Positions 13,581-49,882 of a stretch of DNA of 64,000 bases are shown piece after piece. The position numbers and the translations under genes are program-made. Position 1 is the first letter of the stretch; every line of letters begins with the position of its first letter. The stretch lies in the NCBI GenBank assembly GCA_965208675.1, contig OZ242351.1:2432001-2496000 (forward strand), written 5' to 3'. Below the pieces are notes generated by a model. It worked only from the letters and a program-made list of their open reading frames with translations, ran no database searches and had not been told where the DNA came from. The DNA comes from Candidatus Poribacteria bacterium (GTDB taxonomy: Bacteria > Poribacteria > WGA-4E > PCPOR2b).

Positions 13581-13890
13581 TTACTTGCTTTTTTGAACAT
13601 TTATCACGATGTTTTCATTTAGCGCTTGCTCAAAATCCTCCATGGCTTTCAATGCTAAAGCCGTTTAGCGACTAACGTGCACGTTCTTATCTGCTGATTC
13701 CTGAATCAATGCCGGCACTGCTGCTTCGCCAATTTAGATGAGGGATTCAGCCGCGCTGTCTCGGACATCCGCAGCCGTATGTTCAAGTTTCTGAATTTAT
13801 GATGCGATGTCCTTACCTTGAGCATGAGATACAATGCTCGCCACGCGCCGAATATAGACATATAAGTACACCCCGATTGTGCTTGTTCAT
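13581..13890 (-). pseudogene. Decayed paralog of secreted HEAT-repeat protein 36189-37307
   Basis: Hand translation MNKHNRGVLICLY/fs/VASIVSHAQGKDIAS*IQKLEHTAADVRDSAAESLI*IGEAAVPALI matches MNKHKRTLLICLYLVSMASIVSHAHNENIASLIQQFEHADVDVQDSASKALTEIGEAAVPALI. Confidence 0.85.
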
Positions 13891-13909
13891 TGTTATTGAA
13901 CTCCTTTAA

Positions 13910-14983
13910 CTAGAGCGGGGCTGCTCTAGTTGTAAAGGGAAAATTATAGAGTAACTGTTGTCCTACCCTGTCTTCTGCGTCTATCTTAACATCATATTTT
14001 GTTGAATAATCTAATTGCTCAATTCCGACAAACTTCCAAGTAGCAATACCAGAGCAGCCTTTGATTGTTTCATTGTGAATACGAGCGGGACTAAGTGTTA
14101 TTGCAGGGGTAATCTCACAGAAGGCTTCTGCCATTGGTCTGTCAAAAACAACGTGAATTATTCGTGTGTTTTCTGGGTCAACGTCTCGCCCTATTGGGTA
14201 ATGTTCAACGATTCGCGGCGCGGTGATGTCAAAATCCGGCATCCAATACCAACCTACAAAAGAAAGTGGCTGCACATTATAATTTACGTTTAGAAAATCA
14301 CTTATGACTAATGATCCCACATTGATTAGGTTATCTGTGTCGTCGGGTTCAAGAAATCCAAATTGTCGCCGGCATTGATTCCATGTAATGACATCAGTCG
14401 GTTCTGTTTCTTGCAGTTGAATCCGCTAGTTACCAAACAAAATACGGCCAGAGTTTGGGATAATTGGTTCATTGAAGGTGATACGAAACTCTTGCGTAAG
14501 GGCGTCTAGTTCGACCGGTCTCGAGCGCTGAACGCTTGGCTTTGGATAGACTGCTATCACACGCGGGGAGTTACTCTGTAAATCTAAGGTTACTTTAAGC
14601 GTGTCTTTATGGATGCCGGCTTCATCTTCGTAGATTACCATTAAAACCACTTCCCTGTCAGGACTCCTCTCTATTTGAAGATTCCACACGTCTTCTAAGC
14701 GGTTGCTGTCTAGTTTCCAAACCGTTGCCGGCGGTTCTCCACTGGGTCGGGCTTTAGTAGAATGATTGATGTTCACCGCCAGAACAGGCTTATCAAAGTA
14801 AAGTTCAATTATTGTAGAAGTCTTAATTATGCCACTACCATGTAGTGGCAGCCAGTAGTGCTTGAACGTACCCTGATCAAAACCAAGGGCATCTATCAGC
14901 CGTGCAGGTTGCAATTCCTCTTCCGCGGAGCAGCTCATGAGCAGACAAAATACACAAAAGAGCGTTAAACTTTTCAACAGCAT
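13910..14983 (-). pseudogene. Ig-like-domain lipoprotein interrupted by one in-frame TAG (14426-14428)
   Basis: ORFs 14426-14983 and 13910-14320 share a frame. Read-through ILFGN*RIQLQETEPTDVITWNQC matches paralog 15813. Lipobox LMSC. Confidence 0.85.
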
Positions 14984-14995
14984 GTCAAAATTCCT

Positions 14996-15793
14996 TTAAT
15001 CCGCCGTTTGGAATGTAATCACAAGAGGAGCATCCCTCTTTGTACCCCCAGCGCTATAAAGAGCCAATAGGTGGATTTCGTATTCACGCCCCGGCAATAA
15101 CCTAGCACCTTTACTTTCGGGCAACAGGATCGCCGTCTCGATTCTATCTGTCCAATACACTTTCCAATTAAGTTTCCATCGACCACTGTAAACTTCTATC
15201 CGGGTTCGGTGAGGATCTATCCGATTGCTGAAGCTAATCCTTATCCCTTCTTGGTTTAATTGATTGGCGTCGGCGTCAATCTGATTATTCGATACATTCG
15301 AGGAATCAATCGTTGGTGGTTCTGGGCCTAGCTCGTAATTGCCTAACGCGACTTTAAACGTTTCTTGATGCAAACCGGTTTTATCTTCATAGATTACCGT
15401 AAAAGGCACATTCTTTTTGGGAGTGCGGAAATAGGGTAAAGATGGCAGATTGAGTTCGCCAACTTTTACTATCCAAATCGTCGTCGGCGGTATGCCGTTA
15501 GGTCTTGCGTAACCAAGCACGTTATCCACATCAATAATCACCTGCGACACAGCTTTGTCAAACACAAGTTCTGCCCAATCTTGAAGCGCAAGTACCTCAT
15601 CCCCCTTGCCGTCGGGAAAATGCCAATCTCTAGTGTCTTGATAGTGATTGTCACTGGTGACTTTCATTAACCGCGCAGGTTGTATTTCAGGCATTACTTG
15701 TATGCCCTCATCTGAACAGCTTAGGAACAAAAACAGCACACAACATGGCATGGTGATTTTCAGTAACAACTCAAAAAACCTTGCGAATTTCAT
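14996..15793 (-). CDS. Ig-like-domain lipoprotein (array family, domains A+B)
   Basis: Lipobox FLSC; QPARL..ELVFDK..YEDKTGLH domain plus EGIRISF..IEVYSG..LLPGREYE domain. Confidence 0.8.
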   Translation of the reverse strand: MKFARFFELLLKITMPCCVLFLFLSCSDEGIQVMPEIQPARLMKVTSDNHYQDTRDWHFPDGKGDEVLALQDWAELVFDKAVSQVIIDVDNVLGYARPNGIPPTTIWIVKVGELNLPSLPYFRTPKKNVPFTVIYEDKTGLHQETFKVALGNYELGPEPPTIDSSNVSNNQIDADANQLNQEGIRISFSNRIDPHRTRIEVYSGRWKLNWKVYWTDRIETAILLPESKGARLLPGREYEIHLLALYSAGGTKRDAPLVITFQTAD

Positions 15794-15812
15794 TGTTTTT
15801 TCCCTCCTTTAG

Positions 15813-16892
15813 CTAGAACGGGGCTGCTCTAGTTGTAAAGGAATAATCGAATGCAGACGTACCGGCGAAATCTTCTACTTCAATTTTAACATCATATTTT
15901 GTAGAGTAATTTAACTGCTCAGTGCCGACAAATTCCCAAATAACAACACCAGTGCAGCTTTTGATGCTATCATTTTCAATATGAGCCGGACTCAATGTTA
16001 TTGCGGGGGCAATTTGACAAATCGCTGAGTACACTGACCTGTTGAATACCACGCGAATAAACCGTGTGGTTTCCGGGTCAACGTCCTGTCCTATTGGGTA
16101 GTATTCAAAGACTTTTGCAGGGCCAGGGTCAAAATTTGGCATTCTATACCACCCGACATAAGGGCGAGGCTGGACATCTCCATTTACATTCTGAAAATCA
16201 CGAATGGCCATTGAACCAATATTGTCCAGAAAAAATGGTCGGTAGCATTGATTCCATGTAATGGTATCAGTCGCTTCGGTCTCTTGTAGTTGAATAGTCG
16301 CAATATAAGGACTAGTGCCAAACAGGATACGACCTGAGTTTGGTATGATTGGCTCGTTGAAGGTGATACGAAATTCTTGCCTTGGAACTTCTCGATAGGT
16401 TATGTCAACCGCTTCAGTGCGTTGAGCACCGGGAGGGGGATCGACTGCTATCACACGAGGGGAGTCACTCTGTAAATCTAAGGTAACGTCTAGCGTGTCT
16501 TTATGGATGCCGGTTTCATCTTCGTAAATTATCATCAAGGTCACTTTCTTGTTTCGGCGATTCCACACGCCCTCTAAGCGATTGCTTTCCAGTCTCCAAA
16601 TCGTCGGCGGCGGCATTTCATCGGGTTGGGCTTTAGCCGAATAATTGATGCTTACCTCCAGAACAGGTTTATCAAAGACAAGCTCAATTATTGTAGTAGT
16701 CCCAATTATGCCAGGAAGCGGAAAGGAATCCTGTGGCGTATCTCTGTCATAGCCACGGGCTTCTATCAACCGCGCTGGCTGCAATTCCTCCTCCGTTGAG
16801 CAACCGATGAGCGAACACAAGCAAAGTAAGAGCGTTGTGGCATTTAGCTGGCTTATATCCCCCAAACCACCGATATATCGTGAATTAGCCAA
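15813..16892 (-). CDS. Ig-like-domain lipoprotein (domains A+C+D); 5' end apparently truncated
   Basis: Lipobox LIGC, paralog of 13910-14983. The usual MKF..R leader is absent and the only in-frame starts overlap the upstream gene. Confidence 0.7.
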   Translation of the reverse strand: MANSRYIGGLGDISQLNATTLLLCLCSLIGCSTEEELQPARLIEARGYDRDTPQDSFPLPGIIGTTTIIELVFDKPVLEVSINYSAKAQPDEMPPPTIWRLESNRLEGVWNRRNKKVTLMIIYEDETGIHKDTLDVTLDLQSDSPRVIAVDPPPGAQRTEAVDITYREVPRQEFRITFNEPIIPNSGRILFGTSPYIATIQLQETEATDTITWNQCYRPFFLDNIGSMAIRDFQNVNGDVQPRPYVGWYRMPNFDPGPAKVFEYYPIGQDVDPETTRFIRVVFNRSVYSAICQIAPAITLSPAHIENDSIKSCTGVVIWEFVGTEQLNYSTKYDVKIEVEDFAGTSAFDYSFTTRAAPF

Positions 16893-17494
16893 GAATTATC
16901 CTCTCTAATAAGTAAGACGTAATAACCTGCTCCCGATAAGAGATTGGTACTATTTCCAACGTAAACAAGCGCTTGAGTTCCCCCGGTATCAAAACCGATT
17001 CTCGAAAACTGCATAACCCCTTGAGCACCAGGAAATTTATCATAATAGCGATTCCAGCTATCGTTTATGCTGTCTATTAACTGGTCAATTTCTACATCAT
17101 TGCGAGGAAAGCATTCCCGAAGCTCTTGTTGCCCAAGGATTTTACACGGGACGCTGAGCGCAAGTTGTGCGCAATCAAGTGTTACAGATTGGCGATTGCG
17201 GCTTTCAACACTATTGAATGTCTCTGGAAACACGTTGATGTCGCGCGGTTTATAGAAGTCGGCATCAATAATCAAACTGGAATCAAACACTGTATCGCTT
17301 TCAATGACAATGAGTTTAATATCATCGCGAACATACATGTATTCTATCAATGCTCGGTAGACCGCGTACTCTGTCTCGCTTGTTATTACAAAGGGTTCAC
17401 CGCTGTCATCTGAACAACTTGCTAACGCCAGATAGAACACGAATAACGCGATAGACGACTTTCGAATGATGTAAGTCAGTTGCTGTATCCTCAC
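16853..17494 (-). CDS. Lipoprotein of unknown function (paralog of 17509-18141)
   Basis: Lipobox LASC; ETEYAVYRALIE and FSRIGFDTGGTQALVYVGN shared with neighbour. Confidence 0.75.
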   Translation of the reverse strand: MRIQQLTYIIRKSSIALFVFYLALASCSDDSGEPFVITSETEYAVYRALIEYMYVRDDIKLIVIESDTVFDSSLIIDADFYKPRDINVFPETFNSVESRNRQSVTLDCAQLALSVPCKILGQQELRECFPRNDVEIDQLIDSINDSWNRYYDKFPGAQGVMQFSRIGFDTGGTQALVYVGNSTNLLSGAGYYVLLIREDNSWLIHDISVVWGI

Positions 17495-17508
17495 GTTTCT
17501 CCTTTAAC

Positions 17509-18141
17509 TCATGAAATCCAAAGCTCTGATATGTCGCGGATGACCCAAGTATTATCATCCTTTCTAACTAGCACGATGTAAAATCCTGCACCCGCTGTGT
17601 CAAAAGCTTGGTTGCCCACGTAGACGAGAGCTTGGCGTCCTTCGGTATCGAATCCGATTTTCGAAAGTTGCATAATCCCTTGTGCGCCGGGATAAATTTC
17701 ATAGAAGAGTAACCATTGGGACATCGGAGTCTCAAATTCTCTGTCGCCACGAGAGAAAAATTGTTGAACGTCTTGTCGATCAAGGATTTTACACGGGACG
17801 CTGAGCGCTAGTTTTGTGCAATCGAGCGTTTCAGATTGGCGGTTTCGGTTCTGAAAACTGTTGAATGTATTTAGCGAAACCACAAGATCTAGTGGTTTAT
17901 CCGATGTATTATAAAAGACTGCGCGTGCAGCGGTGTATGGGCGCAATTCAAAATCCAACACGGTTTTACTTTCAATGACAATCAGTTTAATGTCATTGTC
18001 AACGTACAGACCTTCAATCAACGCTCGGTAAACTGCGTACTCGGTCTCGGTAGTAATCATGAAGGGTTCGTCATAGTCTTCCGAGCAATTTGCGAACGCA
18101 AGAACGGCTATAAGAAACAGAAAATTCAACAGTATTTTCAT
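17509..18141 (-). CDS. Lipoprotein of unknown function (paralog of 16853-17494)
   Basis: Lipobox FANC; GGAGG RBS; strong similarity to neighbour. Confidence 0.75.
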   Translation of the reverse strand: MKILLNFLFLIAVLAFANCSEDYDEPFMITTETEYAVYRALIEGLYVDNDIKLIVIESKTVLDFELRPYTAARAVFYNTSDKPLDLVVSLNTFNSFQNRNRQSETLDCTKLALSVPCKILDRQDVQQFFSRGDREFETPMSQWLLFYEIYPGAQGIMQLSKIGFDTEGRQALVYVGNQAFDTAGAGFYIVLVRKDDNTWVIRDISELWIS

Positions 18142-18190
18142 CTTTCCTCCATGATATTAGAGATGGGTTTCCGCTGTCCATCACCGCATT

Positions 18191-18961
18191 TTACTGGTTT
18201 GCGGTCCAAAATCGAATCACAAAAGCCCCTTCTGCCGCCCCTCGTCCAAGTCCTGTCATATCATAATGGGAAAGCAGACGGACTTCATAGGGGCGCCCCG
18301 GTAAGAGCCGGTCATCTTCACTTTTAGGAAACAGGATAGCTGTCTCATAATCCTCTGTCCAATTGATTTCCCAACGCAGTATCATTCGACCGCTGTAAAC
18401 GACAATTCGGGTTCGTTGGGTGTCCATCGTCCTGTCGAATCCAATCTTAATCCCTTCTCTGTTCAAGCGCGCGGCGTCCACATTGACCTCACCCACCTGT
18501 GGATCGCCAGATATTATCGCAGAGGGGAACACGTCAACACTGTAAGCCGCTAACGTTACATCTAGCTTTTCTGAATGGACGCCGGCCTCATCTTCGTAAT
18601 TTATGGTCAAAATTACGCTTGCATTGAACCCTGTTTTGCCATCCCACACGTCTAATCGACTGCTGTCCAGCGTCCAAACCGCTGCGGGTGGGGTTTCATC
18701 GGATTCAGCGTTGACGCTATTGATGCTTACGCGACGCACAGGTTCATCAAAAGTAAGCTCGATTATCGAGGAGAACCAAATCGCACCACGACCATTTTCG
18801 TGAAACGGATAAGATCTCAAGGAATCCACATCAAAGGCACGGGCGTTTACCAGATGCGCTGGTTGCTTGTCCTGATCCGCAGAGCAGCCAATGAGCAAAG
18901 ACAGAAAGCAAAAAATCGCCGTACTACCCATCAGGATATCGCCATTTCTTGTGAATTTCAT
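18191..18961 (-). CDS. Ig-like-domain lipoprotein (domains A+B)
   Basis: MKFTRNGD leader, lipobox LIGC, family motifs. Confidence 0.8.
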   Translation of the reverse strand: MKFTRNGDILMGSTAIFCFLSLLIGCSADQDKQPAHLVNARAFDVDSLRSYPFHENGRGAIWFSSIIELTFDEPVRRVSINSVNAESDETPPAAVWTLDSSRLDVWDGKTGFNASVILTINYEDEAGVHSEKLDVTLAAYSVDVFPSAIISGDPQVGEVNVDAARLNREGIKIGFDRTMDTQRTRIVVYSGRMILRWEINWTEDYETAILFPKSEDDRLLPGRPYEVRLLSHYDMTGLGRGAAEGAFVIRFWTANQ

Positions 18962-19010
18962 CGTGTTTGACCTCCTTTAACACTCTCCCAAGTTGCTGCA
19001 CGACCGGTAA

Positions 19011-19796
19011 CTAGCTCGCCATCCTAAATTTGATTACGACAGGCACGTTTCCCCTTGCGCCCCCAGAGCTATAAAATTCTACCAGATAGATTTCATATTC
19101 ATGACCCGGTAGAAACCAATCATCTTCACTTTCAGGCAACAATATAGCCATCCTATTATCCTCCGTCCATTTGATTTCCCAATTCAGTATCACTTGACCG
19201 TTGTACGCGAAAACGACAATTCGGGTTCGTTGGGTATCCATTGTCTTGTCGAAACCAATCTTTATCCCTTCTCTGTTCAGCTTATTGGCATCTAGATCGA
19301 TTCTAGTCTCTGGATTTACAGATTTAATCTCTGGAGGCGGCTTCTCAATACTGTAAGCTCCAATCCTCACATCGATCGTTTCTGTATGGACGCCATCTTC
19401 ATCTTCGTAGTCTATCACCAAGGTCACATTGCGTGACGGATTCCACCCTATTTGGCGTTTCCACACGTTCAGTTGGGCGGTGTCCAGCGTCCAAACAAAC
19501 GCAGGCGACAATCCATCGGATTCAGCGTTGACACTATTGATGCTCACTTGATGAACGGGTTTATCAAAGAGAAGCTCTATCATCATGAAATACCAAAGTA
19601 CGCCACGGCGGTTTAGTGGAAGCGAAGAGGAATGCCCCGTATTCCTATCATACGCACGGGCTCTAATAAGCTCGGCTGGTATAATATCTTCAGTCTCATC
19701 ATTCGTTGGAGCCGTTGAGCAGGCCATGAGCAAACACAGCCCATAAACCAGCATTAAACCTTTCAACAGCATTGAGTCAAACCTTGTTACCTTCAT
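19011..19796 (-). CDS. Ig-like-domain lipoprotein (domains A+B)
   Basis: MKVTRFDSMLL leader, lipobox LMAC, family motifs. Confidence 0.8.
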   Translation of the reverse strand: MKVTRFDSMLLKGLMLVYGLCLLMACSTAPTNDETEDIIPAELIRARAYDRNTGHSSSLPLNRRGVLWYFMMIELLFDKPVHQVSINSVNAESDGLSPAFVWTLDTAQLNVWKRQIGWNPSRNVTLVIDYEDEDGVHTETIDVRIGAYSIEKPPPEIKSVNPETRIDLDANKLNREGIKIGFDKTMDTQRTRIVVFAYNGQVILNWEIKWTEDNRMAILLPESEDDWFLPGHEYEIYLVEFYSSGGARGNVPVVIKFRMAS

Positions 19797-20252
19797 TGTC
19801 ACCCTTTAATGCCGTCCATACCGGTTGCACTATTTGAGAGTTGAGAATCATCATTTCAGCTCATTTACGTATGTTTTCATCGGTTATTGTGACAATCAAA
19901 TCATCGGTCGAAATGTGGTCAAGCGCAATGAGGGCTTGAAGCGCTGATTCACGTATGGATTCATCGTCGTCAGACAATAGCTCCTTAATTATTGGAATCG
20001 CACCGTCTACCTTAACATTCTTTATATAGCCATCCAATCCAATTACCAAAGAGCTGTTGTCTGACGACGATGAATTCATACCAAATTTTGCGATGGTAGA
20101 AAGAACGCGATTTTGAACATAATGATGTTCAGACCGAAGCAGTGCGGATATTGCGGGCGGATTTATGTGTGACAGCCTGGAAATAATGTTGCCATGAAAC
20201 GTCGAATCAAAATTGATTTCATCTGGATACCATGTTGTTTCTAACACCTTTA

Positions 20253-21139
20253 GAGCCTGTTTGAAAAGTCATTTGATTCGATTTTGCATTAAGTAAATGG
20301 AAGCGATGTACACCATAGTCTCAGCAGTCCTAGGATAGCGTTCATAATCCAAAGTCAATCGACGAAACCAACCAAGCCAAGAAAATGTGCGCTCAACAAT
20401 CCATCGTAACGGGATAACTTCAAACTTCTCCCGTCCTAGCGTAGATGCAATCTCCAGTTGACATTGATGAGCAAAATATAACCAGTCTTCCAATTCTCCA
20501 CGATAGGCGGCATCGGCACACACCAACTGAATGGTTATGTACCAGCTAAACACTTCTGTTAGTAACTCGATAGCAATCTGATTATCACTGACATTCGCGT
20601 CAGTGACTTTGACCATCAATGGAATACCCGTCGTATCCGTTACTAGATGTCGTTTGCGTCCTTTGACCTTCTTGTGACCATCAAAACCGCGAGTCGTCGC
20701 CAGTTCAGTTGTCTTAATGGATTGGCTGTCAATGATAGCTGCTGTCGGTGATGGTTCTTTGCCACCATCACAGCGTGATTGTTCGTGAAGTGCCTGATGA
20801 ATCAAGAGCCATGTATTGTCGGCTTCCCACTTCCTAAAATGGTAATAGACGGTTTGCCACGGTGGCATATCGTATGGTAGCATTCGCCACTGGCAACCGG
20901 ACTTGACGACATAAAAGATGGCATGGACAATTAAGTACATCTCCCATTTTAGAGGTCTACCTAATGGTTGAGGGGTTGGCAGAAACGCTGACAGTTTCTG
21001 CCATTGTACATCGGTCAAATCACTAGGATAACGTTTTCGGTTCATGTTTACTCCCTTCATTGGTTCGGAATCAACTGCTCCAGTGAGTAAACGTAAACAT
21101 CAACCGTTCAGACATCTTTTTTCTTTTTCAAACAGGCTC
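20253..21139 (-). mobile_element. IS5-family (IS1031-like) insertion sequence, 887 bp
   Basis: Perfect 15-bp IRs GAGCCTGTTTGAAAA (20253-20267 / 21125-21139); 3-bp TTA target duplication (20250-20252, 21140-21142). Confidence 0.93.
20269..21060 (-). CDS. IS5-family transposase
   Basis: YPSDLTD..W, GCQWRMLP, IIDSQS, KKVKGRKRH, RWIVERTFSWL..RRL..DYE. Confidence 0.95.
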   Translation of the reverse strand: MKGVNMNRKRYPSDLTDVQWQKLSAFLPTPQPLGRPLKWEMYLIVHAIFYVVKSGCQWRMLPYDMPPWQTVYYHFRKWEADNTWLLIHQALHEQSRCDGGKEPSPTAAIIDSQSIKTTELATTRGFDGHKKVKGRKRHLVTDTTGIPLMVKVTDANVSDNQIAIELLTEVFSWYITIQLVCADAAYRGELEDWLYFAHQCQLEIASTLGREKFEVIPLRWIVERTFSWLGWFRRLTLDYERYPRTAETMVYIASIYLMQNRIK

Positions 21140-23055
21140 TTACCAAAATTGGAGTAATCTCATCGACAAGTGATGCTCCCTCCGCCAACCCGGCTAATGC
21201 GGAGAGGGCCGTATGCCGTGTATGAAAATGCGGAGAAGCCAATGCCTCAGTCAGAATCGGAATGGTCGCTTTGTCGTGCCCCGAACCCATCCATGCCAAT
21301 GCGATTGCCGCATGTTGCCGCACTCCTGCGTCCGTTGCGTTCATAGCCTCCGCTAATAACGGCACTGCGGCAGCACCAATTGACTGAAGACACCACGCCA
21401 CTCGAACGTGAAAGTTGCTCAAGCCTTCCATACAGGACAGAACGTCTCCTCCACGCTGGAAATGCCCGGTCGCAAAGTTCGGCGTGTTAAGTGTTGCAAT
21501 CAGTTTATCGGCAATTTCCAGTTTTTTCTTCAGAGTCAGGATTGAGGAAGTAATTACCGCATCTAATGTTAAAACCGCCGTAGGTCGGGCAACCCGATTA
21601 TTGACCGTATCGTCCGTCGATTCTAACACCTGCACTAAGGCTTGTAGCACCGGATTAACGAGCCGAGGCCGATCCGCCAAGTCTACGAATCTGTAGGTAG
21701 CAAACTTCCGCGTAACGCTGTAAGGCGAAGCCAATGCCTGAGTCAGAATCGGAATGGTTGCATCGTCGTGTTCCGACCCAATCTCCGCCAATGCTATAGC
21801 TGCATGATGGCGCACTCCTGCGTCGGTTGCGTTCATAGCCTCCACTAACAATGGCACCGCGGCAGCACCAATTGACTGAAGACACTCCGCGACTCGAACG
21901 TGAAAGTTACCATCGCGACGATGACCAGGGATGTCAAAGTTTGGCGCGTTTAGCATATCAATCAGTTTGTTGGCAATTTCAAGTTGAACCTCCGGAATCG
22001 CCATCGCAATGTCTCCCAATACGTCAACCACAGCGGTTTGCACATCGTGGCTGTCGTCGGTCAATCTCATCAGCGTCTTGAGAAATTCAGGCTGAACTGC
22101 TGGAATTCCCGCTGCAATCTCCCCTAATGTGGAAACGGTAGTGGCACGGACTTTTTGATTCTCATCGTTCAACGCATTGATTAACCCCGGAACGGCGGCT
22201 TCGGCATGGGACGGGATAATCCCTAATAGACGGGACGCAGTTTCACGGACTTCCGCCACCGAGTCGTTGAATGACTCTGCGATTAGGGTGGCGGTGCCGG
22301 GAAGCGGTTTTATATTAGCGTTCCTCAGTTTATGGGCAATCCGCTCAATCATATACCGCGTCAGTATGGATTCATCTTTGTTGTCGCTTTTCAACAAAGG
22401 CAGCAAGCCGCCCAAAGCCTTATCAAGGTCAATTAAACGAAAAACCGCATCTTCAATTTGACGCCAAGATTCGCTTATCCCACCGCCGCTCAACAACCTC
22501 AAGACTTTTGCCCAAGCGAGGAGTATCTGATCATGGCTCACATTCGTGTCTTTAATGGCTGCGGCTGCATCTTGCTTCACTTGCGGATTTTCGTCACCGA
22601 GCTGAAGGATTAAACTATCCAGACCTAGGGCGGATTCATCTCTGTTGTCGCTTTTCAAGGTATCTAGCACGCCAGCCGAAGTCTTATCAATGTCAATTAA
22701 ACCAAAAACTGCATCTGTCGTTCGTACCCAATGATCGGTGTTGTCTTCAAGCATCCGGCTCCGACTTAATAACAGCGAGAGCTTTGCCCATGCGAGCAGT
22801 ATCTTATCATCAGTCACGTTCATCTTTTTAATATTCGCGGCGGCATCTTGCCGAACCTGTGGACGTTCATGACCGAGTTCGATGATAGAGATTTCCAGAG
22901 ATTCACTCATGCCCTTGAAAGGACTAGTTACTAAAGAAGTGTTGTGGGCGGCGGCTCTCGAACAGATGATGATACCGATTAAAAAGAACAAGCGTCTATA
23001 ATTTTGCATTTTGACCGCCTTTCATGTCATTGGGTTGCGTTCGATGCAGTACGGG

Positions 23056-23943: not shown

Positions 23944-24023
23944 TTTTGTTGCCCTCAGATTATTGTTAAAGGCGAATATGTCCTAGTCCTTTGTTGATGG
24001 AATCCGTGAGCTCCCCTCGTCCT

Positions 24024-24908: not shown

Positions 24909-24944
24909 TGTTTTTCAAAGGATCCGGATTGTTCAACAATTGAA

Positions 24945-25832: not shown

Positions 25833-25864
25833 TGGTATCCTCTAACTCGCCGTAGGGTATTTCC

Positions 25865-26443: not shown

Positions 26444-26453
26444 AATTCTCCTT

Positions 26454-35389: not shown

Positions 35390-35391
35390 TG

Positions 35392-42479: not shown

Positions 42480-43616
42480 TTATTCCGGTATCGGGGGACT
42501 TGTGTCACCGTTTGCGTCGTTGGCTCCCGTTGTTCCAACCGGTCCTATGTCTGCGCCCCGATCCTCAAGTATTGATAGATACTCCTTCGCTTTTTCCGAA
42601 TCGCCTCCGGCTTCAGACGTCTGCACAGCATGCCACAACGATTCGTCAATCAAACCGTCAAACCGTGCCTTTGCCGCCGCCAATGCCTCAGCACGCTCTT
42701 TCGCGCCGTCAAACAGAGCGGAGAACACATTCGCAAACACCGTATCCTTACGCGTTATACCCGCCGCTTCCGCGTATAACCGAGAAGCACTAAGCTGCCC
42801 ATCGGAGTTGTAGAAGTCTTCTTCCTTCGTCCACTTCGCCTTGGTCGCTAATTCCTGTACCTGCATCACATTGGCTTCAATGGCTAAAAGGTGTGTTGGG
42901 TAGTCTATCAGGAATTGCGCGTAGGATACCGTGTTGTCGGTGGTGAAGGCGGTCCGCGTCAGTTCTAATGCGTCGAACCACGTCTGACCGGCGTTGTGGT
43001 TGGAGATGCACCACACGCTCAACTTCACCGCTCCATCGGGCGGCAAAGCACTGACGGTGACTGTCCCCCAGTCGTTTTCGCCGGCGGGCAGCATAGGTGA
43101 GTCAGACGTGCTTATCATATCTCCATCTTTATTGAACCAGGCTATCAAGAGGTAGACTTCACCGTTGTTGCCTAGGGTCTTGACCTTCCCGGTCAGGGTG
43201 TACCACTGAAAACCGTCTCTCTCAACTGTAAGCTCGTCGCTTGACCATCGACCGTAGTTCCAGCGCGAGCTGTGGATGGAGATGCTGTGGCTGCCGGCGG
43301 ATTTGACCTCGGAATCCCAGATGTAGTTGTCACCGACAAACAAGGTCAGGGGCGTCCAGTTGTTCGGACCTGGGAGTTCCTCATTGTTGTTGCTTTCATC
43401 AAACGACGGGTTAGCGAGCGCGACAGTGACGGCGGCTGCAGGCTGCTCGTCATCACCAGGCCCCACACCAGGGCCGCCGCCGGTTCCGCCAGTACCGCCG
43501 GTTTCACCAGTGCCCCCGGTGTCGTCGTTTCCGCCGGGGATAGGTGACGCGTGGAGAAATGAAGTGGATAACAACAGGAAAAGAATCGTAATTGCGCTTA
43601 TGAAATACCTTGACAT
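42480..43616 (-). CDS. Secreted protein with Gly/Thr linker and CBM4/9-like carbohydrate-binding domain
   Basis: AGGAGG RBS before ATG 43616; signal peptide; ANPSFDE..W..WFDALEL galactose-binding-like pattern. Confidence 0.65.
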   Translation of the reverse strand: MSRYFISAITILFLLLSTSFLHASPIPGGNDDTGGTGETGGTGGTGGGPGVGPGDDEQPAAAVTVALANPSFDESNNNEELPGPNNWTPLTLFVGDNYIWDSEVKSAGSHSISIHSSRWNYGRWSSDELTVERDGFQWYTLTGKVKTLGNNGEVYLLIAWFNKDGDMISTSDSPMLPAGENDWGTVTVSALPPDGAVKLSVWCISNHNAGQTWFDALELTRTAFTTDNTVSYAQFLIDYPTHLLAIEANVMQVQELATKAKWTKEEDFYNSDGQLSASRLYAEAAGITRKDTVFANVFSALFDGAKERAEALAAAKARFDGLIDESLWHAVQTSEAGGDSEKAKEYLSILEDRGADIGPVGTTGANDANGDTSPPIPE

Positions 43617-43856
43617 GTTTTGACCTCCTAAGAGTTTGTTTGATAAAGTCATTTGATACGTTTGCGTATCAAAAATGTGGAAGCTATTCAACATCGCTAA
43701 GAACTTGTTTGAAAAGTCCTTCCTTTCCCGACGAAAAGGGACTGTAGGCATCGCGTAACCCTGCTGCCGTCTTCTGCCGCGGGAAGGATTAAAAGATGCA
43801 TCAATCTCTAGAGCCAGCCGGATTAGAGAAAGACAATCTGCCTCCCCTGTACTATG

Positions 43857-43872
43857 GCAAAAACCGTGCCAA
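43857..43872 (-). promoter_or_regulatory. sigma-54 (RpoN) -24/-12 promoter
   Basis: Minus strand TTGGCACGGTTTTTGC matches TGGCACG-N4-TTGC. Confidence 0.85.
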
Positions 43873-43992
43873 TGGTCGGTTTAAGGAGGAGTTCAACTCT
43901 GTAGAGACGGATAAATTCAGTGGTAGCCTAGGTTCGATGGATATGCGAAGGAGTCAGAAGGACGGTAGCGTGACAGGGTGCGGGTTGAAAAA

Positions 43993-44096
43993 GTCCCATA
44001 TTGGGACTGACAAGATTGGCAGAAATAGCGGATAAGCCTGTAATGACGCGGGATGGGGGCGTTTTCCCAATATGGGAATTTGTCCCATATTGGGAC
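43993..44096. promoter_or_regulatory. Three palindromic boxes TCCCA-N3-TGGGA; putative enhancer (bEBP UAS)
   Basis: GTCCCATATTGGGAC at 43993-44007 and 44082-44096; TTCCCAATATGGGAA at 44064-44078; 120-225 bp upstream of the sigma-54 site. Confidence 0.75.
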
Positions 44097-44578
44097 GAAA
44101 GAAGAAGGTTTAAGGGCGGATTAGTTCATTCAATTGATAATTTTTTTTGTAGGACAGGATTTTTTTCAAGATTTAAATAATTTTTCGGTAAATTCCGAGT
44201 GATGTCCGGTGCGGTTGGGGAACCGAATCTACCGAGTTGGACGGAATTCGCTGTAGTTGGGAAATCGCACCTACCGCCGTGAAAGGAGGTTATACGACTT
44301 CAATTTCCGATACAGTGTTGATTAACCAATCTTCAACGCGTACACCCTAATGGACGCGCATCACTGTCTACACATTGGGGGTAAGTCAGGGCACGAGGAG
44401 GTGGGGACTTTTTTTTGAAACTGTCCGACATGGTTAGGAGCGAGGTTGCATTGCCCATTAAGCAACGCAATCAAACAGTGCAATAGTATGACCGGATTCA
44501 TCGGGGGCATCGGAACGGAATACGTCTATATTCGTACCTCGATACCGAAATTGTAAAGCGGCGAGCATAGACAATTCT

Positions 44579-45466
44579 TTACTCGCCGCTCTCCTCTACT
44601 TTCAATTTCCACAACTTCAGCTTTTGTTGCTGTGTGCTGCGCATAACAACGACCTGCTGCGGTCCAATGGAGTGGATAGTTGCGCCAGCAATAACGTCTC
44701 CCACACGCGCCGTTTGTGCCCCAAATATGGCAATCGGGTTCGCTTCGTCCCACAGGATTCCTGTCAGTTGCGGTAAAGTCGACTCGGTCACCGAGATTTT
44801 GGCTGTGATCGATTGCGGTGCAGTTGCGTCAAAAACAAACGGGTTGCGTTTGACGGAAAATCTTCGTATTGCTGGCATCTCAATCAGTGGCGAGTGACTA
44901 GTGGAGAGTGGAGAGTTAAGGAATTGCTCTCCACTCATCACTCTCCACTCTCCACTGTCTCTTTTGTGCATCGGCGAAAGTGTCAGACTCATCCACAAGG
45001 TGTCTTTTTGCATTTTTCGTCGATAGAGCCGCACTTCCTCAATTCGTACCGTCGGGACTATCCGTTCCACAACTGACAAAAAAGTTATAAATCCGTTATA
45101 GTTACCTGAAAGCGTCAGTTGAATCGGGAGCGCGCCATAATCGCCGCGATGCCATTCTCGGAGTTCCTCAACGCCGACGAGGAATGGGGATAACCTATCG
45201 GAAATTTTTCCTAGCTCCGGCAAAAGTGCATCGGGTTCACGCCAGAGGAGTTGCTTTTCTATTCGATGGCGTTTCTCCTCTGCATCGGCGACCTGTTTCA
45301 TCCACTTTTGGTGGACAGTAGAAGCAGTGTCAGTGGTCTGTGATTTGTGACCAGTAGAAGACAAGTCCTTCTCTGTCGCCGTGGCACGCTTCCATTGGGC
45401 GAGTTGTACCACTAGCGCGGCAAACAGTATGAAGACTAGAAAGTAGAGTAATCGTATCATAATCAA
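44579..45466 (-). CDS. PilO/GspM-like protein with C-terminal PilP/GspC-like domain
   Basis: N-terminal TM; LPIQLTLSGNYNGFITFLSVVE; RNPF..LTGILWD..IAIF..RVGDVIAG. Confidence 0.65.
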   Translation of the reverse strand: MIMIRLLYFLVFILFAALVVQLAQWKRATATEKDLSSTGHKSQTTDTASTVHQKWMKQVADAEEKRHRIEKQLLWREPDALLPELGKISDRLSPFLVGVEELREWHRGDYGALPIQLTLSGNYNGFITFLSVVERIVPTVRIEEVRLYRRKMQKDTLWMSLTLSPMHKRDSGEWRVMSGEQFLNSPLSTSHSPLIEMPAIRRFSVKRNPFVFDATAPQSITAKISVTESTLPQLTGILWDEANPIAIFGAQTARVGDVIAGATIHSIGPQQVVVMRSTQQQKLKLWKLKVEESGE

Positions 45467-45659: not shown

Positions 45660-47294
45660 TCATTCAACTGCTTCTAACGAGGTGAGAGCTAATGTAAACT
45701 CCAGCCATCGCTTCCCGCCAATCAAGGTTTGTTCGGTCTCGACCTGTCGGACAGATGAGAATTCCGGTTGTGTGACTAAAGCGGCTCGGAACGCATTTAT
45801 CTCCGATTGAGCCGGTGCAACCCCGATAACCAATAGTGCGCGGCGGGCATCAAAGGTGACATCCGCTTTTGTCGCTTGAGATGGTAAAACAGTGCGTATC
45901 TCTGTTAGCCGCACAGTAGCGGGACACCGATTGGAAATTTGCACCAAACGCTCCGCCAACGTCGGGAAACGACGCTCGCCCCAAGCGAGATGCGCGAGCG
46001 CGTCTTCGATTTCGGTGTGACGTTCTTGCAGCGATTTGGTTTCCGTCTGCAATGTTTTTTCATGTGCGCGGGCACGACGAAGCGTATCAATACGCTCGCT
46101 CTTCGATTCGATTGTATCAAAGAGTTTCACGTTAGCACCCAACAGCAGGAGCAGCGCGGCTATCGGAATCATCCGCATCAGCAACCGCTTTCGCCGCAAT
46201 TTTCGTTTTACGGCTCTTTCGGCAAGCACCGGGGACAGCAGATTCAGGATAAAACCAGAGCCAGCGGTCAGTAACCTGTTGCCAGTGAAGGACGATTTTG
46301 CTGACCACCGGTCACTGGAAATTGGCCTCTGAATTGGTTTCAATAACGCCGTATGCCAATCGAAGGTGGATTCCGCAACCTCCGCAACCCCCAACTGTGA
46401 AGCAGTGCCAGTGGCTAGTGACCAGTAGCCAGCATTAGAAGCACTACTCTCACTGTTCACTGGCGCATGACCACTGGCACTGCCTTTGCTACTTTCGGCA
46501 GCATGGAGCAGGACAATCCTTTTCAGCGGTGTTCCCGTTGGGTTAGGACAGTTGGCTAGGCTATGCCGAACCGTTCGCCACAGTTGATCGGCGTTTTCGA
46601 TAACAAAGCTGCGCCCGAAGCAGATTTGAGCTTCCCTTTCTGGTCGGTCGGTTAATCCCGCCTCGACGACCACTAAATCGCACAGCTGTCCGTCGATATG
46701 TACGCCACATACCCGTTCCGAACCGTCCCAATGCGAAAGAAGTTGGTTGGCTAACACGACTGACTGCGGGGCTAGGTACGCCAATTCCACTCCCGAAAGC
46801 TGTGCTAAGACCGAAACTAACTTTCTCTTAAGCATCCAACCGACCAACAGCGTCGTCGGCGACAGTAACTGAAAATCGTAAGCGGCTGAATTCAAAGCGA
46901 TGGGAATGTGATTCTCGTTCTCCAGTGCGGTCTCAATCGCCACTTTTTGCAGTTCAACCGTGGCTTGGGGAACGGCATCCGACATTTGAATCCATTTGAG
47001 CAGCACCTCGTTGCTGGATATGGAGGCAAATACTGGCTGCGACTTTATGTCCGCAAGGAGGTAACGTACGGTTTCTGCGAGGGCGGGATGAGACAGCGGG
47101 TCAACGACTTGTCCCCTAAGACTATCGCACTCACTATCCGTTCGCTTGATCCCACCGTGGTAAGGGGGAGAACTCTCTGATGCCGGTAACGGTCGTGAAT
47201 CTTCCCGGACACACGTCCAGCTCCCGCCGCGCCAAACCATATCCGCTCGGCGGACTGCCGCGTGAGTTATCTGCAAACAGGTACAGCTTTTCAT
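45660..47294 (-). CDS. PilM/GspL-like domain fused to PilN-like domain
   Basis: Actin-like N-terminal region; LNLL motif then TM and coiled coil; CPATVRLTEI..VIGVA..FRAAL..FSSV..EFTL. Confidence 0.6.
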   Translation of the reverse strand: MKSCTCLQITHAAVRRADMVWRGGSWTCVREDSRPLPASESSPPYHGGIKRTDSECDSLRGQVVDPLSHPALAETVRYLLADIKSQPVFASISSNEVLLKWIQMSDAVPQATVELQKVAIETALENENHIPIALNSAAYDFQLLSPTTLLVGWMLKRKLVSVLAQLSGVELAYLAPQSVVLANQLLSHWDGSERVCGVHIDGQLCDLVVVEAGLTDRPEREAQICFGRSFVIENADQLWRTVRHSLANCPNPTGTPLKRIVLLHAAESSKGSASGHAPVNSESSASNAGYWSLATGTASQLGVAEVAESTFDWHTALLKPIQRPISSDRWSAKSSFTGNRLLTAGSGFILNLLSPVLAERAVKRKLRRKRLLMRMIPIAALLLLLGANVKLFDTIESKSERIDTLRRARAHEKTLQTETKSLQERHTEIEDALAHLAWGERRFPTLAERLVQISNRCPATVRLTEIRTVLPSQATKADVTFDARRALLVIGVAPAQSEINAFRAALVTQPEFSSVRQVETEQTLIGGKRWLEFTLALTSLEAVE

Positions 47295-47494
47295 CTTTTA
47301 GAAAAAGCGTTGGGTTTCGAAATCCTGTTCAACCCAACTTACAATCTGTCGCCCCGCTGGGGCTTAGGTGGGTGGGGTTGCGGTATTTCTATACACCTTC
47401 CGCCCCGCTGGGGCTTTTGGCTTGATTGTTGGGTTTCGCAGAAAACTATCGCCCTCGTTATTCACTCGGTTGATCGCTCGACCCAATCTACAGT

Positions 47495-49882
47495 TTATTC
47501 GGTTGGTCGATCATTGCTTTTAATCACTGTCGGTTGAATGATTACAATTAACTCCGTCTGTTCGACGGTTGTTTCTTTTGAGGAGAATAGGAGACCTCCA
47601 AGCAGCGGAATGCGGCCCAGGATTGGGACTCGGCTGACTTTCTGAATCTCCTTCTCCTGGAGCAACCCTCCAATCACAACGACGCCCTGATCGGGGACGT
47701 TGATGGTGGTCTGTATCAGGCGCTGATCTAACGACGATTCTTCGCGTGACAGTTGGTCGGCATTTCGGATAGCGAGTTGTATTTGCATCGTGACCTCGCC
47801 GGAGGCGCCGATGGCGGGCGTCAATTCTAACAGAATTCCTGTTTCAATCGTGAAGTAGCTGCGGTAACTCGACGGCGGGTATCCGCCGAACGCCGTTACC
47901 TGCGACGAAGATTCACCGACAACCCCGCCTATCGACGTGTAAATCGGGTTGTTGGTCTCGAACAGATGCTTCCCGCCAATATCGATCGATGCCTTCTCGC
48001 CGTTCACGACAGCAAGCGAGGGATTAGCCAGCAGCTTACCGCGATTTTTTTCGACCAACGCGGATAGTTTCGCGCTGAACGCCGGCGGCACACTCACCAA
48101 CGAGTCGAAACTCACCACGCTTCTATCGTTTATCTGAACCGCAGCTCGGTTTTCGGCGGCTTCGACGGCCAGTCCCAATTCGTCACGGTTGCCTTTCGTC
48201 AACTCCAGCAGGTAGAGTTGAATCATCGCCTGCGGCTGAGGCACATCAACGGTTTGCAGATACTCACGAAATGCGCTAATTTTCGCACCGGAGCCCACGA
48301 CTAGCAAGGCGCTCCGCTCCGGCAGTGGGCTGATGTTCACATTGAGCGGGGCAGGCAGCAGTTCCATTGCCTTCGGCACATCCAGATAGTTTAAGGCAAT
48401 CAGTTCCTCCTCCACAAATGGCGCATTCATTTCGGATCCGATAATCAGCATCGGCTTTTCGTCAGGCGTCGTTTTGACCCATTTGTATGCGTAGCCCGAA
48501 CCCAAAAACAGTGCCGACAGAACCGATTCTAAAGTGGCGTCTGTTTGGCGCAAGGTAACGGTCTCGGTTGATGAAATGGGCTGGGGGTCTGGGGTTGCAC
48601 GTTGGGACGCAGTTGGCGATGTGGTTGACGGCTCCGGCGCTGTTCCATCTAAGAACACTATATCAATTCCGGTTTCAATGGAGAGCTGACGTACCGCATC
48701 GAAGCGCGGCGCGTTTAATAGGTCAACGCTCAGCCGTCCCGTTCCGCTGTCCGAATTGATGGCAATCGCGCCGCTGCCCTGATATCCACGAATAGCATCG
48801 TCTGTGGTGTCCAGTTCACCAAGGAATTGTGCTGCCTCTTGAATCAACTTCCGTGATCCGACGATAGTGACCGTGTTGTGCGTCTGGGAGACAACGACAT
48901 TTTGCTTGGGGATATGAATCGGGAGTAGGTTGAGAACCGTGTTTGCCTCAAGGTGGCGTAGCCATATGGTCTTGCGTTCGATTAACGGGTTCAGTTCATC
49001 CGCTTTTATCTCAGGTCTGCCAAAGAAGTGGAGGTCATCGGTTTGACGATAGGTATAGCCGGTCATTTTCGCCAAATCCATTAATATCTCCGTAACGGTT
49101 CTGTTATCGAGCCGCAACGTGATTTTTTGGCGCTCAATATCCCCCACTATCGACAGGTTGATCTTTGCACGCTCCGCCAACTCCGTCAGCAGTAGAGTCA
49201 AACTCGCCTCGTGGGCTGTTACTGAGATGCGACCGTCGGATATCAATAGCGTTAAACCAGCTTGCTGCAAAGGTGCCGGAGGCTCAACTCGGTAGATGTC
49301 ATCGGAAACGTGCAGGGTGAAGTCGGCGAATAGTACGGGCAGGGCCTTGTCAAGCGGTTGGTCTCGGAGATGTGACGTGACTTGACCCGTCAGGTTGGAG
49401 TCGCTAGTTATATTCATGCCGGCTTGAGCTAAAGCACGAACCACCTGATTCACTTCAACCCCGTTCGCATCAACAGCGAGTTTCCCTTCGGAGATGTTGA
49501 GCGAAAGGCGTTGGCTCTCAGGGAGGCTTTGTCCAATGAAATAGATTTCGCCGCGCTTTTCAAGCGTGAACCCGTTCGGTTCTAACAGTGCTAACAGCCC
49601 GGTTTCTATCGACACGGCGTTTAGGTTGGTCGTGACAGTGGTGGTCGCGGGGATAATATCAAGCCCCGCTACGCTGATGCTTTTCTGCGCGGCAAGATTG
49701 CCTAACACGTCGCGCAAGCTGGCGTCCCGGCAACTTAGGCTGAAAACGGAGTCATGGTTTTGGGCGTGGCTTGAGCAAGGAAGGATGTTATCATGCGCAA
49801 GAGACAAGAAAAAGAGCAGCAATACGGTTCGAGGCACTGGGGTAATCTTTTCCATTCGGAATACGCATTGCAGGAACTTCAA
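47495..49882 (-). CDS. Type II secretion/type IV pilus secretin (GspD/PilQ-like)
   Basis: Several STN/N domains; LLANPSL..NGEKASI; VVIGGLL..SRVPILGRIPLLGGLLF..TELIVIIQP. Confidence 0.9.
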   Translation of the reverse strand: MKFLQCVFRMEKITPVPRTVLLLFFLSLAHDNILPCSSHAQNHDSVFSLSCRDASLRDVLGNLAAQKSISVAGLDIIPATTTVTTNLNAVSIETGLLALLEPNGFTLEKRGEIYFIGQSLPESQRLSLNISEGKLAVDANGVEVNQVVRALAQAGMNITSDSNLTGQVTSHLRDQPLDKALPVLFADFTLHVSDDIYRVEPPAPLQQAGLTLLISDGRISVTAHEASLTLLLTELAERAKINLSIVGDIERQKITLRLDNRTVTEILMDLAKMTGYTYRQTDDLHFFGRPEIKADELNPLIERKTIWLRHLEANTVLNLLPIHIPKQNVVVSQTHNTVTIVGSRKLIQEAAQFLGELDTTDDAIRGYQGSGAIAINSDSGTGRLSVDLLNAPRFDAVRQLSIETGIDIVFLDGTAPEPSTTSPTASQRATPDPQPISSTETVTLRQTDATLESVLSALFLGSGYAYKWVKTTPDEKPMLIIGSEMNAPFVEEELIALNYLDVPKAMELLPAPLNVNISPLPERSALLVVGSGAKISAFREYLQTVDVPQPQAMIQLYLLELTKGNRDELGLAVEAAENRAAVQINDRSVVSFDSLVSVPPAFSAKLSALVEKNRGKLLANPSLAVVNGEKASIDIGGKHLFETNNPIYTSIGGVVGESSSQVTAFGGYPPSSYRSYFTIETGILLELTPAIGASGEVTMQIQLAIRNADQLSREESSLDQRLIQTTINVPDQGVVVIGGLLQEKEIQKVSRVPILGRIPLLGGLLFSSKETTVEQTELIVIIQPTVIKSNDRPTE

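Follow-up and report, generated by a model that had tools for sequence, protein, structure and literature searches.

A putative island of signal-peptide Rhs toxins, exported immunity proteins and a co-inherited secretin module in a sponge-associated Candidatus Poribacteria genome

Overview of the locus

The window analyzed here is a stretch of 64,000 nt from a Candidatus Poribacteria genome (designated G000; contig OZ242351.1, positions 2,432,001 to 2,496,000), and between positions 49882 and about 13611 it carries 29 minus-strand open reading frames (ORFs) of at least 91 aa. We read this locus as a polymorphic Rhs toxin-immunity island of a sponge symbiont that would work without a type VI secretion system (T6SS), with an adjoining secretin module providing the outer-membrane step, a reading to which we give an even chance. 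The evidence comes from a five-gene order (secretin, PilM-PilN-like, PilO-like, CBM-like and Rhs) found in several relatives, from the signal peptides of the Rhs proteins and of most of the proteins encoded downstream of their toxin tails, and from the T6SS gene content of the genome.

The source genome is a single contig of 4.89 Mb (96.4% complete) whose DNA is present in sponge metagenome runs (12 datasets from 8 studies, with no RNA dataset among these). Relative genomes carry the labels G002 to G063; G002 belongs to the same genus as G000, while G061 and G063 belong to a different family of the same order. Coordinates are window positions unless G000 or another locus is named. Window-type secretins were surveyed in 41 relatives, and the PilM-PilN-like (PilMN) and CBM families in 176 genomes of the phylum. 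The 29 locus proteins were scanned with the Pfam and NCBIfam profiles at their gathering or equivalog cut-offs, and signal peptides and lipoboxes were called by inspection together with a hydrophobicity and lipobox heuristic. An earlier note on this DNA, made from the sequence alone, had named the main parts of the locus, and the ORF listing, Pfam and NCBIfam place all of them on the minus strand at their expected positions. Its list of co-oriented genes also stands, but its description of the downstream end of the set has to be corrected for an IS5-family transposase that lies inside it. No tRNA genes marking island borders are found within the window.

The Rhs proteins and their upstream genes

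The genes on which the reading turns are as follows.

47495-49882, minus strand: divergent secretin, 795 aa; Pfam Secretin at 114.7 bits (4.4e-33), with STN and Secretin_N
45660-47294, minus strand: PilM-PilN-like (GspL-like) fusion, 544 aa; sub-threshold PilM_2 (73-147) and PilN (453-536)
44579-45466, minus strand: PilO-like (GspM-like) bitopic protein, 295 aa; Pfam PilO at 23.9 bits (cut-off 22)
42480-43616, minus strand (listed ORF 42480-43751): exported CBM-like accessory protein, 378 aa from Met46; assigned by fold only
37434-42389, minus strand: RhsA, 1651 aa; RHS_repeat, Laminin_G_3 and Rhs_assc_core; toxin tail 37434-38078
35392-36192, minus strand: mini-Rhs, 266 aa; own signal peptide, fused at AYYHP to the C-terminal ~40 residues of the Rhs core and a following 202-aa tail with HELTH
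27956-32887, minus strand: RhsB, 1643 aa; RHS_repeat, Laminin_G_3 and Rhs_assc_core; 205-aa tail with HEVTH

RhsA and RhsB are typical Rhs proteins. Pfam RHS_repeat matches them at 2.6e-21 and 4.8e-21, NCBIfam adds a YD_repeat_2x match and a partial RHS_core match, and the Rhs-associated core (TIGR03696) scores 73 bits against a cut-off of 32.5 at residues 1363-1437. The core ends with PLGFVDPTGM in RhsA (around residue 1428) and PLAFIDPTGL in RhsB, the canonical form being PxxFxDPTG[LM]. The two genes are 98.1% identical over 4302 nt and their products 97.5% identical over 1437 aa, with complete identity over residues ~100-1300, and directly past the PLxFxDPTG motif the identity falls from 100% to about 20%. 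The Rhs shell also accommodates a LamG insert (residues 1175-1325). Both N-termini are basic and then hydrophobic (MKRNFCFCMLISLMVFAFSSAAVSQ...), a feature retained in the orthologues of G061 and G063, so that the Sec signal peptides proposed in the earlier note are borne out by inspection, by the hydrophobicity scan and by conservation.

Stand-alone LamG ORFs of ~260-300 aa (Laminin_G_3-like) also occur by the dozen in G000-G040 and share 23-36% identity with the LamG insert of the Rhs proteins. A reading of the locus as a Tc (ABC) toxin was rejected, as Pfam detected no SpvB, TcdB mid/N or TcA-type family on any of the 29 scanned locus proteins.

The window secretin consists of a signal peptide, ~400 N-terminal aa of uncertain N0/STN-like character, the STN and Secretin_N domains, and the secretin domain. 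It falls below every NCBIfam secretin cut-off (GspD TIGR02517, 153.8 against 351.35; PilQ, 118.7 against 284.35), while the only other secretin of G000 is a GspD that scores 438.8 with TIGR02517, above the equivalog cut-off. The 544-aa protein that follows has no Pfam match at gathering score, but its sub-threshold PilM_2 and PilN matches stand in the correct order, and a language-model comparison places it beside clusters of PilM_2, PilN and fused PilM-PilN proteins (0.96, with 194-200 of 256 features in common). A profile of this PilMN family weakly matches the N-terminal half of PilM-like proteins from type II secretion system (T2SS) loci, and BLASTP gave no significant match between the 544-aa protein and the PilM-like protein of the T2SS locus (best E 2.1). 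The PilO-like protein has ~130 additional C-terminal aa, in which NCBIfam GspC_delta reaches E 0.0044 at residues 251-287, far below its cut-off. Set against PilMNOPQ of the type IV pilus (T4P), only PilO thus exceeds its cut-off, with PilM_2, PilN and PilQ all below theirs.

A spacer of 830 bp separates the PilO-like gene from that of the CBM-like protein. Its start is more likely to be Met46 (43616), because the ATG at 43751 falls inside a dispersed repeat of ~550 bp, and Met46 directly precedes the signal peptide. The protein has no Pfam or NCBIfam match and belongs to a family of 46 clusters. In the AlphaFold2 (AF2) model (mean predicted local distance difference test (pLDDT) score 70.5) the signal peptide is followed by a Gly/Pro-rich stretch of low confidence, then by a beta-sandwich and, last, by a helical bundle; the fold of the beta-sandwich is similar to that of CBM4/CBM16 modules (Foldseek E 1e-5 to 1e-4, with low template modelling scores).

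The Pfam scan of the locus proteins detected no GspE ATPase, GspF platform protein or GspG-K pseudopilins, and the secretin module includes no prepilin peptidase. Elsewhere in G000, a complete T2SS locus at 1.35 Mb contains the only T2SSE gene and the only T2SSF gene of the genome, along with pseudopilins, the PilM-like protein and the 1008-aa GspD secretin.

Linkage of the secretin module and Rhs in relatives

The order secretin-PilMN-PilO-CBM-Rhs is kept in G000, G002, G061 and G063, that is, in four genomes of two families, at protein identities of 52-77%. Orthologues of the secretin are 71-77% identical in the three relatives, and for G061 and G063 the values are 77% for the secretin, 57% for PilMN, 54-61% for PilO, 67-73% for CBM and 68-69% for Rhs. 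The cassettes downstream of the five genes differ from locus to locus. The first four ORFs of the G002 set overlap or directly adjoin one another (6685-9132, 9104-10513, 10513-11436 and 11403-12605) and the Rhs gene begins 120 nt further on, at 12726, which gives the set the layout of one operon. A second locus of the same genome has a fragment of the secretin followed by CBM (80-84% identical) and Rhs (69%), and G022 has an N-terminal secretin part of ~340 residues that continues straight into the C-terminal ~880 residues of an Rhs. Both of the secretin remnants found (G002 and G022) therefore sit exactly at Rhs loci.

The CBM family gives a similar picture. Among the 176 genomes of the phylum it occurs at seven loci in six genomes, each time directly upstream of an Rhs gene, and what lies upstream of these pairs is the full module in four cases, a remnant in one and unrelated genes in two (G018 and G047). 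A metagenome scan with the CBM alignment added only one short locus. PilMN orthologues (E<1e-60) were found in 8 of the 176 genomes, four of which are those with five-gene loci; a scan of genome contigs with the PilMN alignment returned four loci in three genomes already in the set. The window-type secretin is patchily distributed among the 41 relatives. On the Rhs side, the gene in G017 is split near residue 175 by a transposase-like ORF (locus L044, 12573-13370), and G019 and G023 have 3' parts only.

Judged from gene order, the linkage of secretin and Rhs is real and has lasted through much sequence divergence. According to the earlier note, its reading would fall if the secretin cluster were not linked to such Rhs genes in relatives; the linkage is kept in the four genomes named above and is not universal. 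The module is more alike between the two families than expected (77% for the secretin), and it has probably moved as one island.

HExxH toxin tails and mini-Rhs genes

The tail of RhsA has 214 aa with an HEFSH motif, that of RhsB 205 aa with HEVTH, and HExxH is present in 16 of the 18 tails collected from this Rhs family across the relatives. In the RhsA tail family the two His and the Glu of the motif, and a further Glu 28 residues past the second His, are invariant in 11 aligned sequences. This family is very small, with 12 proteins of 168-268 residues recovered at E<=0.001 when 1.84 billion representatives were searched exhaustively with HMMER. Neither this tail family nor the CBM family has a Pfam model.

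The AF2 model of the RhsA tail (pLDDT 86.7) was compared by the exhaustive structural aligner VIA, and the 50 matches listed (Z 4.9-7.5) are nearly all zincins, the best having Z 7.5 with a root-mean-square deviation of 4.7 over 161 aligned residues. Two results count against this assignment: Foldseek returned no PDB match at E<=0.001, and VIA scores with Z <8 lie within the range of chance arrangements and so are not decisive. For that reason, a zincin-type metallopeptidase is the best reading of the modeled tails and not a shown fact. The RhsB tail matches Peptidase_M91 at E 9e-4 (20.1 bits, under the cut-off of 25). The label metallopeptidase given by the earlier note has behind it the HExxH motifs, one sub-threshold family match and a modest fold match.

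The mini-Rhs genes combine such tails with their own export signals. Three orphan toxin genes of G000 and one database relative start with a signal-peptide-like segment of the form MTMN/Q...FTL..LLLT.IA.P.LEA, which meets the end portion of the Rhs core at AYY(D/H)P, the tail coming after it, and because of this leader they may be exported independently. Besides the copy in the window there are two at 3.079 and 3.083 Mb of G000 (locus L003, 4987-5826 and 8713-9540). The orphans of another genus (G013, G017, G018 and G019) are plain internal 3' fragments of Rhs genes.

Exported partners and the orphan cassette array

The remaining genes of the locus, some 20 of them for exported lipoproteins, HEAT or SUKH proteins, lie downstream of the tails, and those past the Big_5 lipoprotein gene that follows RhsB extend over 13 kb.

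36189-37307, minus strand: exported HEAT-repeat and Ig-like protein, 372 aa, candidate immunity protein for the RhsA tail; Pfam HEAT_2
33812-35476, minus strand: two paralogous lipoproteins (lipobox LLIGC), candidate mini-Rhs immunity; from a family of 7 copies in the window
32906-33751, minus strand: exported transglutaminase-like protein directly upstream of RhsB; Transglut_core2 at 27.4 bits (cut-off 23.5)
27144-27944, minus strand: Big_5 lipoprotein, candidate RhsB-tail immunity
27014-27130, minus strand: toxin-tail remnant (last 39 residues), 87% identical to a tail that is full-length in a G002 Rhs
13611-26996, minus strand: orphan exported gene array with lp180/lp200, HEAT201/HEAT91, a 173-aa ORF, SUKH, HEAT633, the IS5 transposase, HEAT128, seven Lpp/Big_5 lipoproteins, two further lipoproteins and a terminal HEAT/Ig fragment (13611-13890)
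23056-23943, minus strand: SUKH/SMI1 protein with the leader of the lipoprotein family (58% over 34 residues), its lipobox Cys replaced by Ser (LLIGSS)
20269-21060, minus strand: IS5-family transposase; DDE_Tnp_1 and DUF4096; 11 matches in the genome, several 99-100% identical

Nearly every gene located 3' of a tail starts with a signal peptide or lipobox. Of 136 pairwise comparisons of tail and downstream-gene sets, 96 showed no similarity in either component and 10 showed it in both; in 24 it was confined to the tail, mostly as weak matches near the HExxH helix, and in 6 to the downstream gene. The exported partners claimed in the earlier note are thus indeed encoded 3' of each tail and co-vary with it. 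For example, a HEAT/Ig homologue follows an RhsA-type tail five times: in the window, in the array at 3.083 Mb, in G002 and on two metagenome contigs that each carry both the Rhs and the HEAT protein. When the RhsA tail and the mature HEAT/Ig protein were modelled together, the prediction supported their pairing weakly (0.38 against 0.10 for the best control). The three runs scored 0.37, 0.84 and 0.38, with contact agreement between runs of at least 0% and a partner pLDDT of at least 83. Calibration of the tool placed 58 of 80 solved complexes and 2 of 110 mismatched pairs at the mark, and at scores of 0.60 or below only 7 of the 80 solved complexes passed, together with both mismatches; these counts are approximate owing to the custom alignments.

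The tail remnant at 27014-27130 directly precedes lp180/lp200, homologues of which follow the same tail type in G002, G018 and G019, and on this comparison the remnant is the footprint of a displaced cassette. HEAT201/HEAT91, which have no toxin in the window, are placed after a full Rhs in G002. Both cases agree with the proposal of the earlier note that the array is a bank of displaced or orphan immunity genes. Immunity genes also outnumber toxins, with 7 Lpp paralogues in the window alone. The IS5 insertion separates two HEAT ORFs that together equal one 665-aa ORF of G013.

A second array at 3.078-3.085 Mb of G000 (L003, 3074001-3090000) has no full-length Rhs. It is headed, at 3.078 Mb, by a transglutaminase-like paralogue (78% identical to that of the window), followed by mini-Rhs, HEAT, HEAT/Ig, mini-Rhs and HEAT/Ig genes, and ends at a phage-integrase fragment on the opposite strand.

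The stretch of 61-87 nt that encodes the leader common to the SUKH/SMI1 protein and the lipoprotein family recurs at the 5' end of seven genes. To judge from its distribution, the leader region looks like a common joint between otherwise unrelated cassettes.

The sigma-54 promoter repeat

Upstream of the CBM gene lie the following elements.

43700-44330, minus strand: copy of the ~550-bp dispersed repeat, with three palindromes and a sigma-54 promoter
43857-43871, minus strand: sigma-54 -24/-12 element TGGCACGGTTTTTGC; 2 matches in the window against 0.17 expected
43994-44006, 44065-44077 and 44083-44095, minus strand: three palindromes GTCCCA-N3-TGGGAC (TCCCAATATGGGA); 3 against 0.08 expected

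None of 100 shuffles reached three palindromes, the sites lie 123-238 bp upstream of the promoter, and G000 has rpoN. The repeat is present in five copies, each with an identical promoter and ~130 nt of conserved, predicted transcribed leader, the other four being at ~84.0-84.6, 2637.3-2637.9, 3044.3-3044.9 and 3790.1-3790.7 kb of G000. One copy lies directly 3' of a gene (G000 3788237-3790126) with the architecture RR-PAS-Sigma54_activat-HTH_8, and the product of this gene is the obvious candidate for an activator of the repeat promoters. The genes downstream of the copies are unrelated to one another (CBM-Rhs; Cas_NE0113 with HD; a DEAD helicase with MZB; and an uncharacterized 232-aa ORF). 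Two of these genes or sets look defence-related, and the repeat may be a mobile promoter cassette or mark a conflict-related regulon. Rfam contains no family matching the repeat (sole row E 0.69 and 18 bits, gathering score 60). On this ground, and because the transcribed part folds no better than shuffled sequences (z 0.53), a small RNA under sigma-54 control was discarded as a reading of the repeat.

The relatives differ in this respect. Inside the tight operon of G002 there is no such promoter, a 69%-identical copy of the repeat being located ~6 kb upstream of the secretin, and the second G002 locus has a degenerate promoter copy (TGGCACGGTTTTTGT). In G061 and G063, the sole pattern match is upstream of the secretin, on the opposite strand and facing away, and the CBM gene has no match ahead of it. 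It follows that sigma-54 control characterizes the genus and not the system. The promoter and upstream sites that the earlier note described are real and belong to the five-copy repeat. In G000, the position of the promoter is likely to split the module into two transcription units.

Alternative explanations

A number of observations weigh against the proposed export route. Intact, full-length Rhs genes about 57-65% identical to those of the window are kept in G013 and G018, and a 1410-aa Rhs ORF (37-40% identical) in G047, with no such secretin in the stretches examined. Secretin orthologues of 43-48% identity stand alone in G004 and G009, the copy in G006 is broken, and PilMN-PilO pairs occur without an adjoining Rhs in G004, G008 (two copies), G047 and G048, some of these contigs (including that of G008) being short. 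Module and Rhs therefore also occur apart, and neither strictly needs the other in a genome. The remnants in G002 and G022 indicate that the module is easily lost, G022 in particular showing a secretin in the course of deletion, and shared descent rather than selection may explain part of the conserved order. With the LamG domain added, a folded Rhs shell of ~1400 residues is about as large as known secretin cargo, or larger. The module lacks an ATPase, platform protein and pseudopilin, and that it shares the T2SS engine is pure inference. The Rhs tail of G063 (197 residues; L073, 19411-19977) has no HExxH and is followed by a 188-aa gene with no signal peptide, so the same chassis may also bear a cytoplasm-acting toxin and not all cargo need act in the envelope. 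Much of this would be explained if the secretin, PilMN and PilO genes formed an independent, patchily distributed envelope apparatus, a spare or decaying outer half of T2SS/T4P type that travels with Rhs without moving it; the Rhs proteins would then exit by the GspD of the T2SS or by vesicles, or else remain periplasmic or at the cell surface. The T2SS of G000, complete and equipped with a GspD, could indeed serve any Sec-exported folded protein, and the Sec-dependent MafB of Neisseria did not need the PilQ secretin (PMC4287609). Such an apparatus is possible, on the doubtful side, since it would have to accommodate a five-gene order maintained at 52-77% identity in two families though the downstream cassettes differ, the overlapping ORFs that lead in G002 from the secretin into CBM-Rhs, the position of both remnants, and a genome with no second ATPase or platform gene to give the module a machine of its own.

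Other alternatives concern the purpose of the Rhs proteins and their route. The organism is a sponge symbiont, as the metagenome runs indicate, and the Rhs proteins could be aimed at the sponge host or other eukaryotes, or be teneurin- or Tc-like adhesins, with the partners merely guarding the periplasm of the producer during transit. The LamG and CBM-like modules suggest glycan binding, host-directed zincin effectors are among the weak fold neighbours of the tail, and HEAT repeats are typical of symbiont genomes. We consider this unlikely, given that large orphan-immunity arrays with displaced cassettes are the product of strain-against-strain conflict, that immunity genes exceed toxins, that tail and partner families co-vary among Poribacteria genomes, and that the locus proteins carry no Tc-type TcA/TcB or SpvB domains. 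Conventional T6SS cargo, the best-studied Rhs route in diderm bacteria (PMC4287609), is highly improbable here. The 4.89-Mb genome has no match to VipB/TssC (PF05943), Hcp (PF05638), Phage_GPD/VgrG (PF05954), PAAR (PF05488) or DcrB/DUF1795 (PF08786), and the Rhs proteins begin with signal peptides and have no PAAR or VgrG-binding domain at their N-termini, which extends to the whole genome the lack of PAAR, VgrG and EagR features that the earlier note saw in the window. With neither T6SS core genes nor a PAAR domain or EagR partner in G000, this reading was rejected.

A model for export and immunity

Export of the Rhs proteins by way of the adjoining secretin is plausible, with the evidence for and against it about in balance. 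In such a scheme, Sec would take the Rhs proteins across the inner membrane, their folding around the zincin-type peptidase tails would follow in the periplasm, and the exported partners would neutralise the tails within the envelope of the producer. The outer-membrane step would be provided by the co-inherited divergent secretin with the PilM-N/GspL-like and PilO/GspM-like proteins. Lacking its own ATPase and pseudopilins, the module would connect to the single T2SS engine of the genome (GspE, GspF and pseudopilins, at 1.35 Mb), and the CBM-like protein could be an accessory for targeting or for hand-over to the secretin. Successive replacement of tails would have left the downstream bank of orphan immunity genes, which may protect against the toxins of relatives. 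In this genus, CBM-Rhs would be transcribed from the sigma-54 promoter of the five-member repeat, probably under one NtrC-type activator, and the target would be the envelope of rival Poribacteria strains.

Signal-peptide Rhs proteins encoded beside their own secretin genes point to an undescribed export route for this class of toxin. In its most specific form, a dedicated outer-membrane pathway in which the secretin, its GspL- and GspM-like partners and the CBM-like protein move the ~180-kDa Sec-exported Rhs, and maybe the mini-Rhs, with a T2SS motor borrowed or none, and the tails attack the envelope of rivals, the proposal is a tentative one. The earlier note had claimed export by Sec and the adjacent secretin, and here the signal peptides and the absence of a T6SS are in its favour, while the secretin is tied to Rhs by synteny and a strict dependence of one on the other does not hold.

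The locus bears on the question of how signal-peptide polymorphic toxins cross the outer membrane of diderm bacteria, of which MafB is the worked example, and offers a concrete, testable candidate route in the form of a five-gene unit with secretin and Rhs co-inherited. If correct, it would add a route to the Rhs delivery systems and imply that a secretin can pass very large, shell-like cargo, and uncultured sponge symbionts would gain a defined weapon for competition between strains.

Comparison with known systems

Orphan immunity arrays are known from the acquired interbacterial defence islands of Bacteroidales and the T6SS arrays of Vibrio, and are built by cassette displacement. The array in the window differs from these in encoding exported lipoproteins and HEAT proteins tied to an Rhs chassis. 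With the T6SS Rhs effectors (PAAR- or VgrG-linked and EagR-chaperoned) the proteins described here share the YD shell, the DPxG[LM] end of Rhs_assc_core, a variable tail, downstream immunity and orphan cassettes. Unlike them, they have a Sec signal peptide in place of PAAR/prePAAR, a LamG insert in the shell, exported immunity and no T6SS genes.

Known secretin subcomplexes of the T2SS (GspD-GspC-GspL-GspM) and T4P (PilQ-PilP-PilO-PilN-PilM) resemble the module in the N0/N1-like secretin, the PilM-PilN fusion, which is the arrangement of GspL, and the PilO/GspM-like protein. In contrast to both, the gene order in the window starts with the secretin, and there is no ATPase, platform protein, pseudopilin or prepilin peptidase.

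WapA of Bacillus subtilis is a Sec-exported Rhs/YD toxin used in competition, and the immunity proteins of WapA are cytoplasmic. The hosts of WapA are monoderm and have no outer membrane to cross, unlike Poribacteria. WapA of Streptococcus suis is likewise a Sec-exported Rhs/YD polymorphic toxin in competition (PMC12704120).

Among diderm bacteria, a parallel in organization is the MafB/MafA/MafI system of Neisseria (Jamet et al. 2015; PMC4287609). It shares with the window locus Sec-dependent export, an exported accessory gene directly upstream, immunity downstream and orphan cassettes. MafB, however, lacks an Rhs shell, and a linked, dedicated secretin is a feature of the window; MafB release did not need PilQ, and its outer-membrane route is given there as unknown.

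A close match in content is the 'T2SS/Sec-dependent' class in the 2012 catalogue of polymorphic toxins by Zhang, de Souza, Anantharaman, Iyer and Aravind (PMC3482391), a class that combines signal peptides with RHS repeats. RHS proteins with HExxH tails are in the same catalogue, as are Imm-HEAT, Imm-SUKH and an inactive transglutaminase, so that the signal-peptide leader, RHS repeats, HExxH tails, HEAT/SUKH immunity and transglutaminase-like neighbour of the present locus all have counterparts there, and the expression 'new system' in the earlier note was too strong. For this class the table of the catalogue gives no signature neighbourhood gene. In the island described here, by comparison, the secretin, PilM-N-like, PilO-like and CBM-like genes are inherited with Rhs, and immunity is nearly all exported. 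Titles and abstract starts returned by a full-text literature search (subscription journals and supplements being outside it) describe no secretin-linked Rhs operon. On present sequence evidence, the account that fits is that Sec-dependent Rhs toxins are already known, and that what would be new is the dedicated, co-inherited secretin module, the exported immunity and the mini-Rhs with its own signal peptide.

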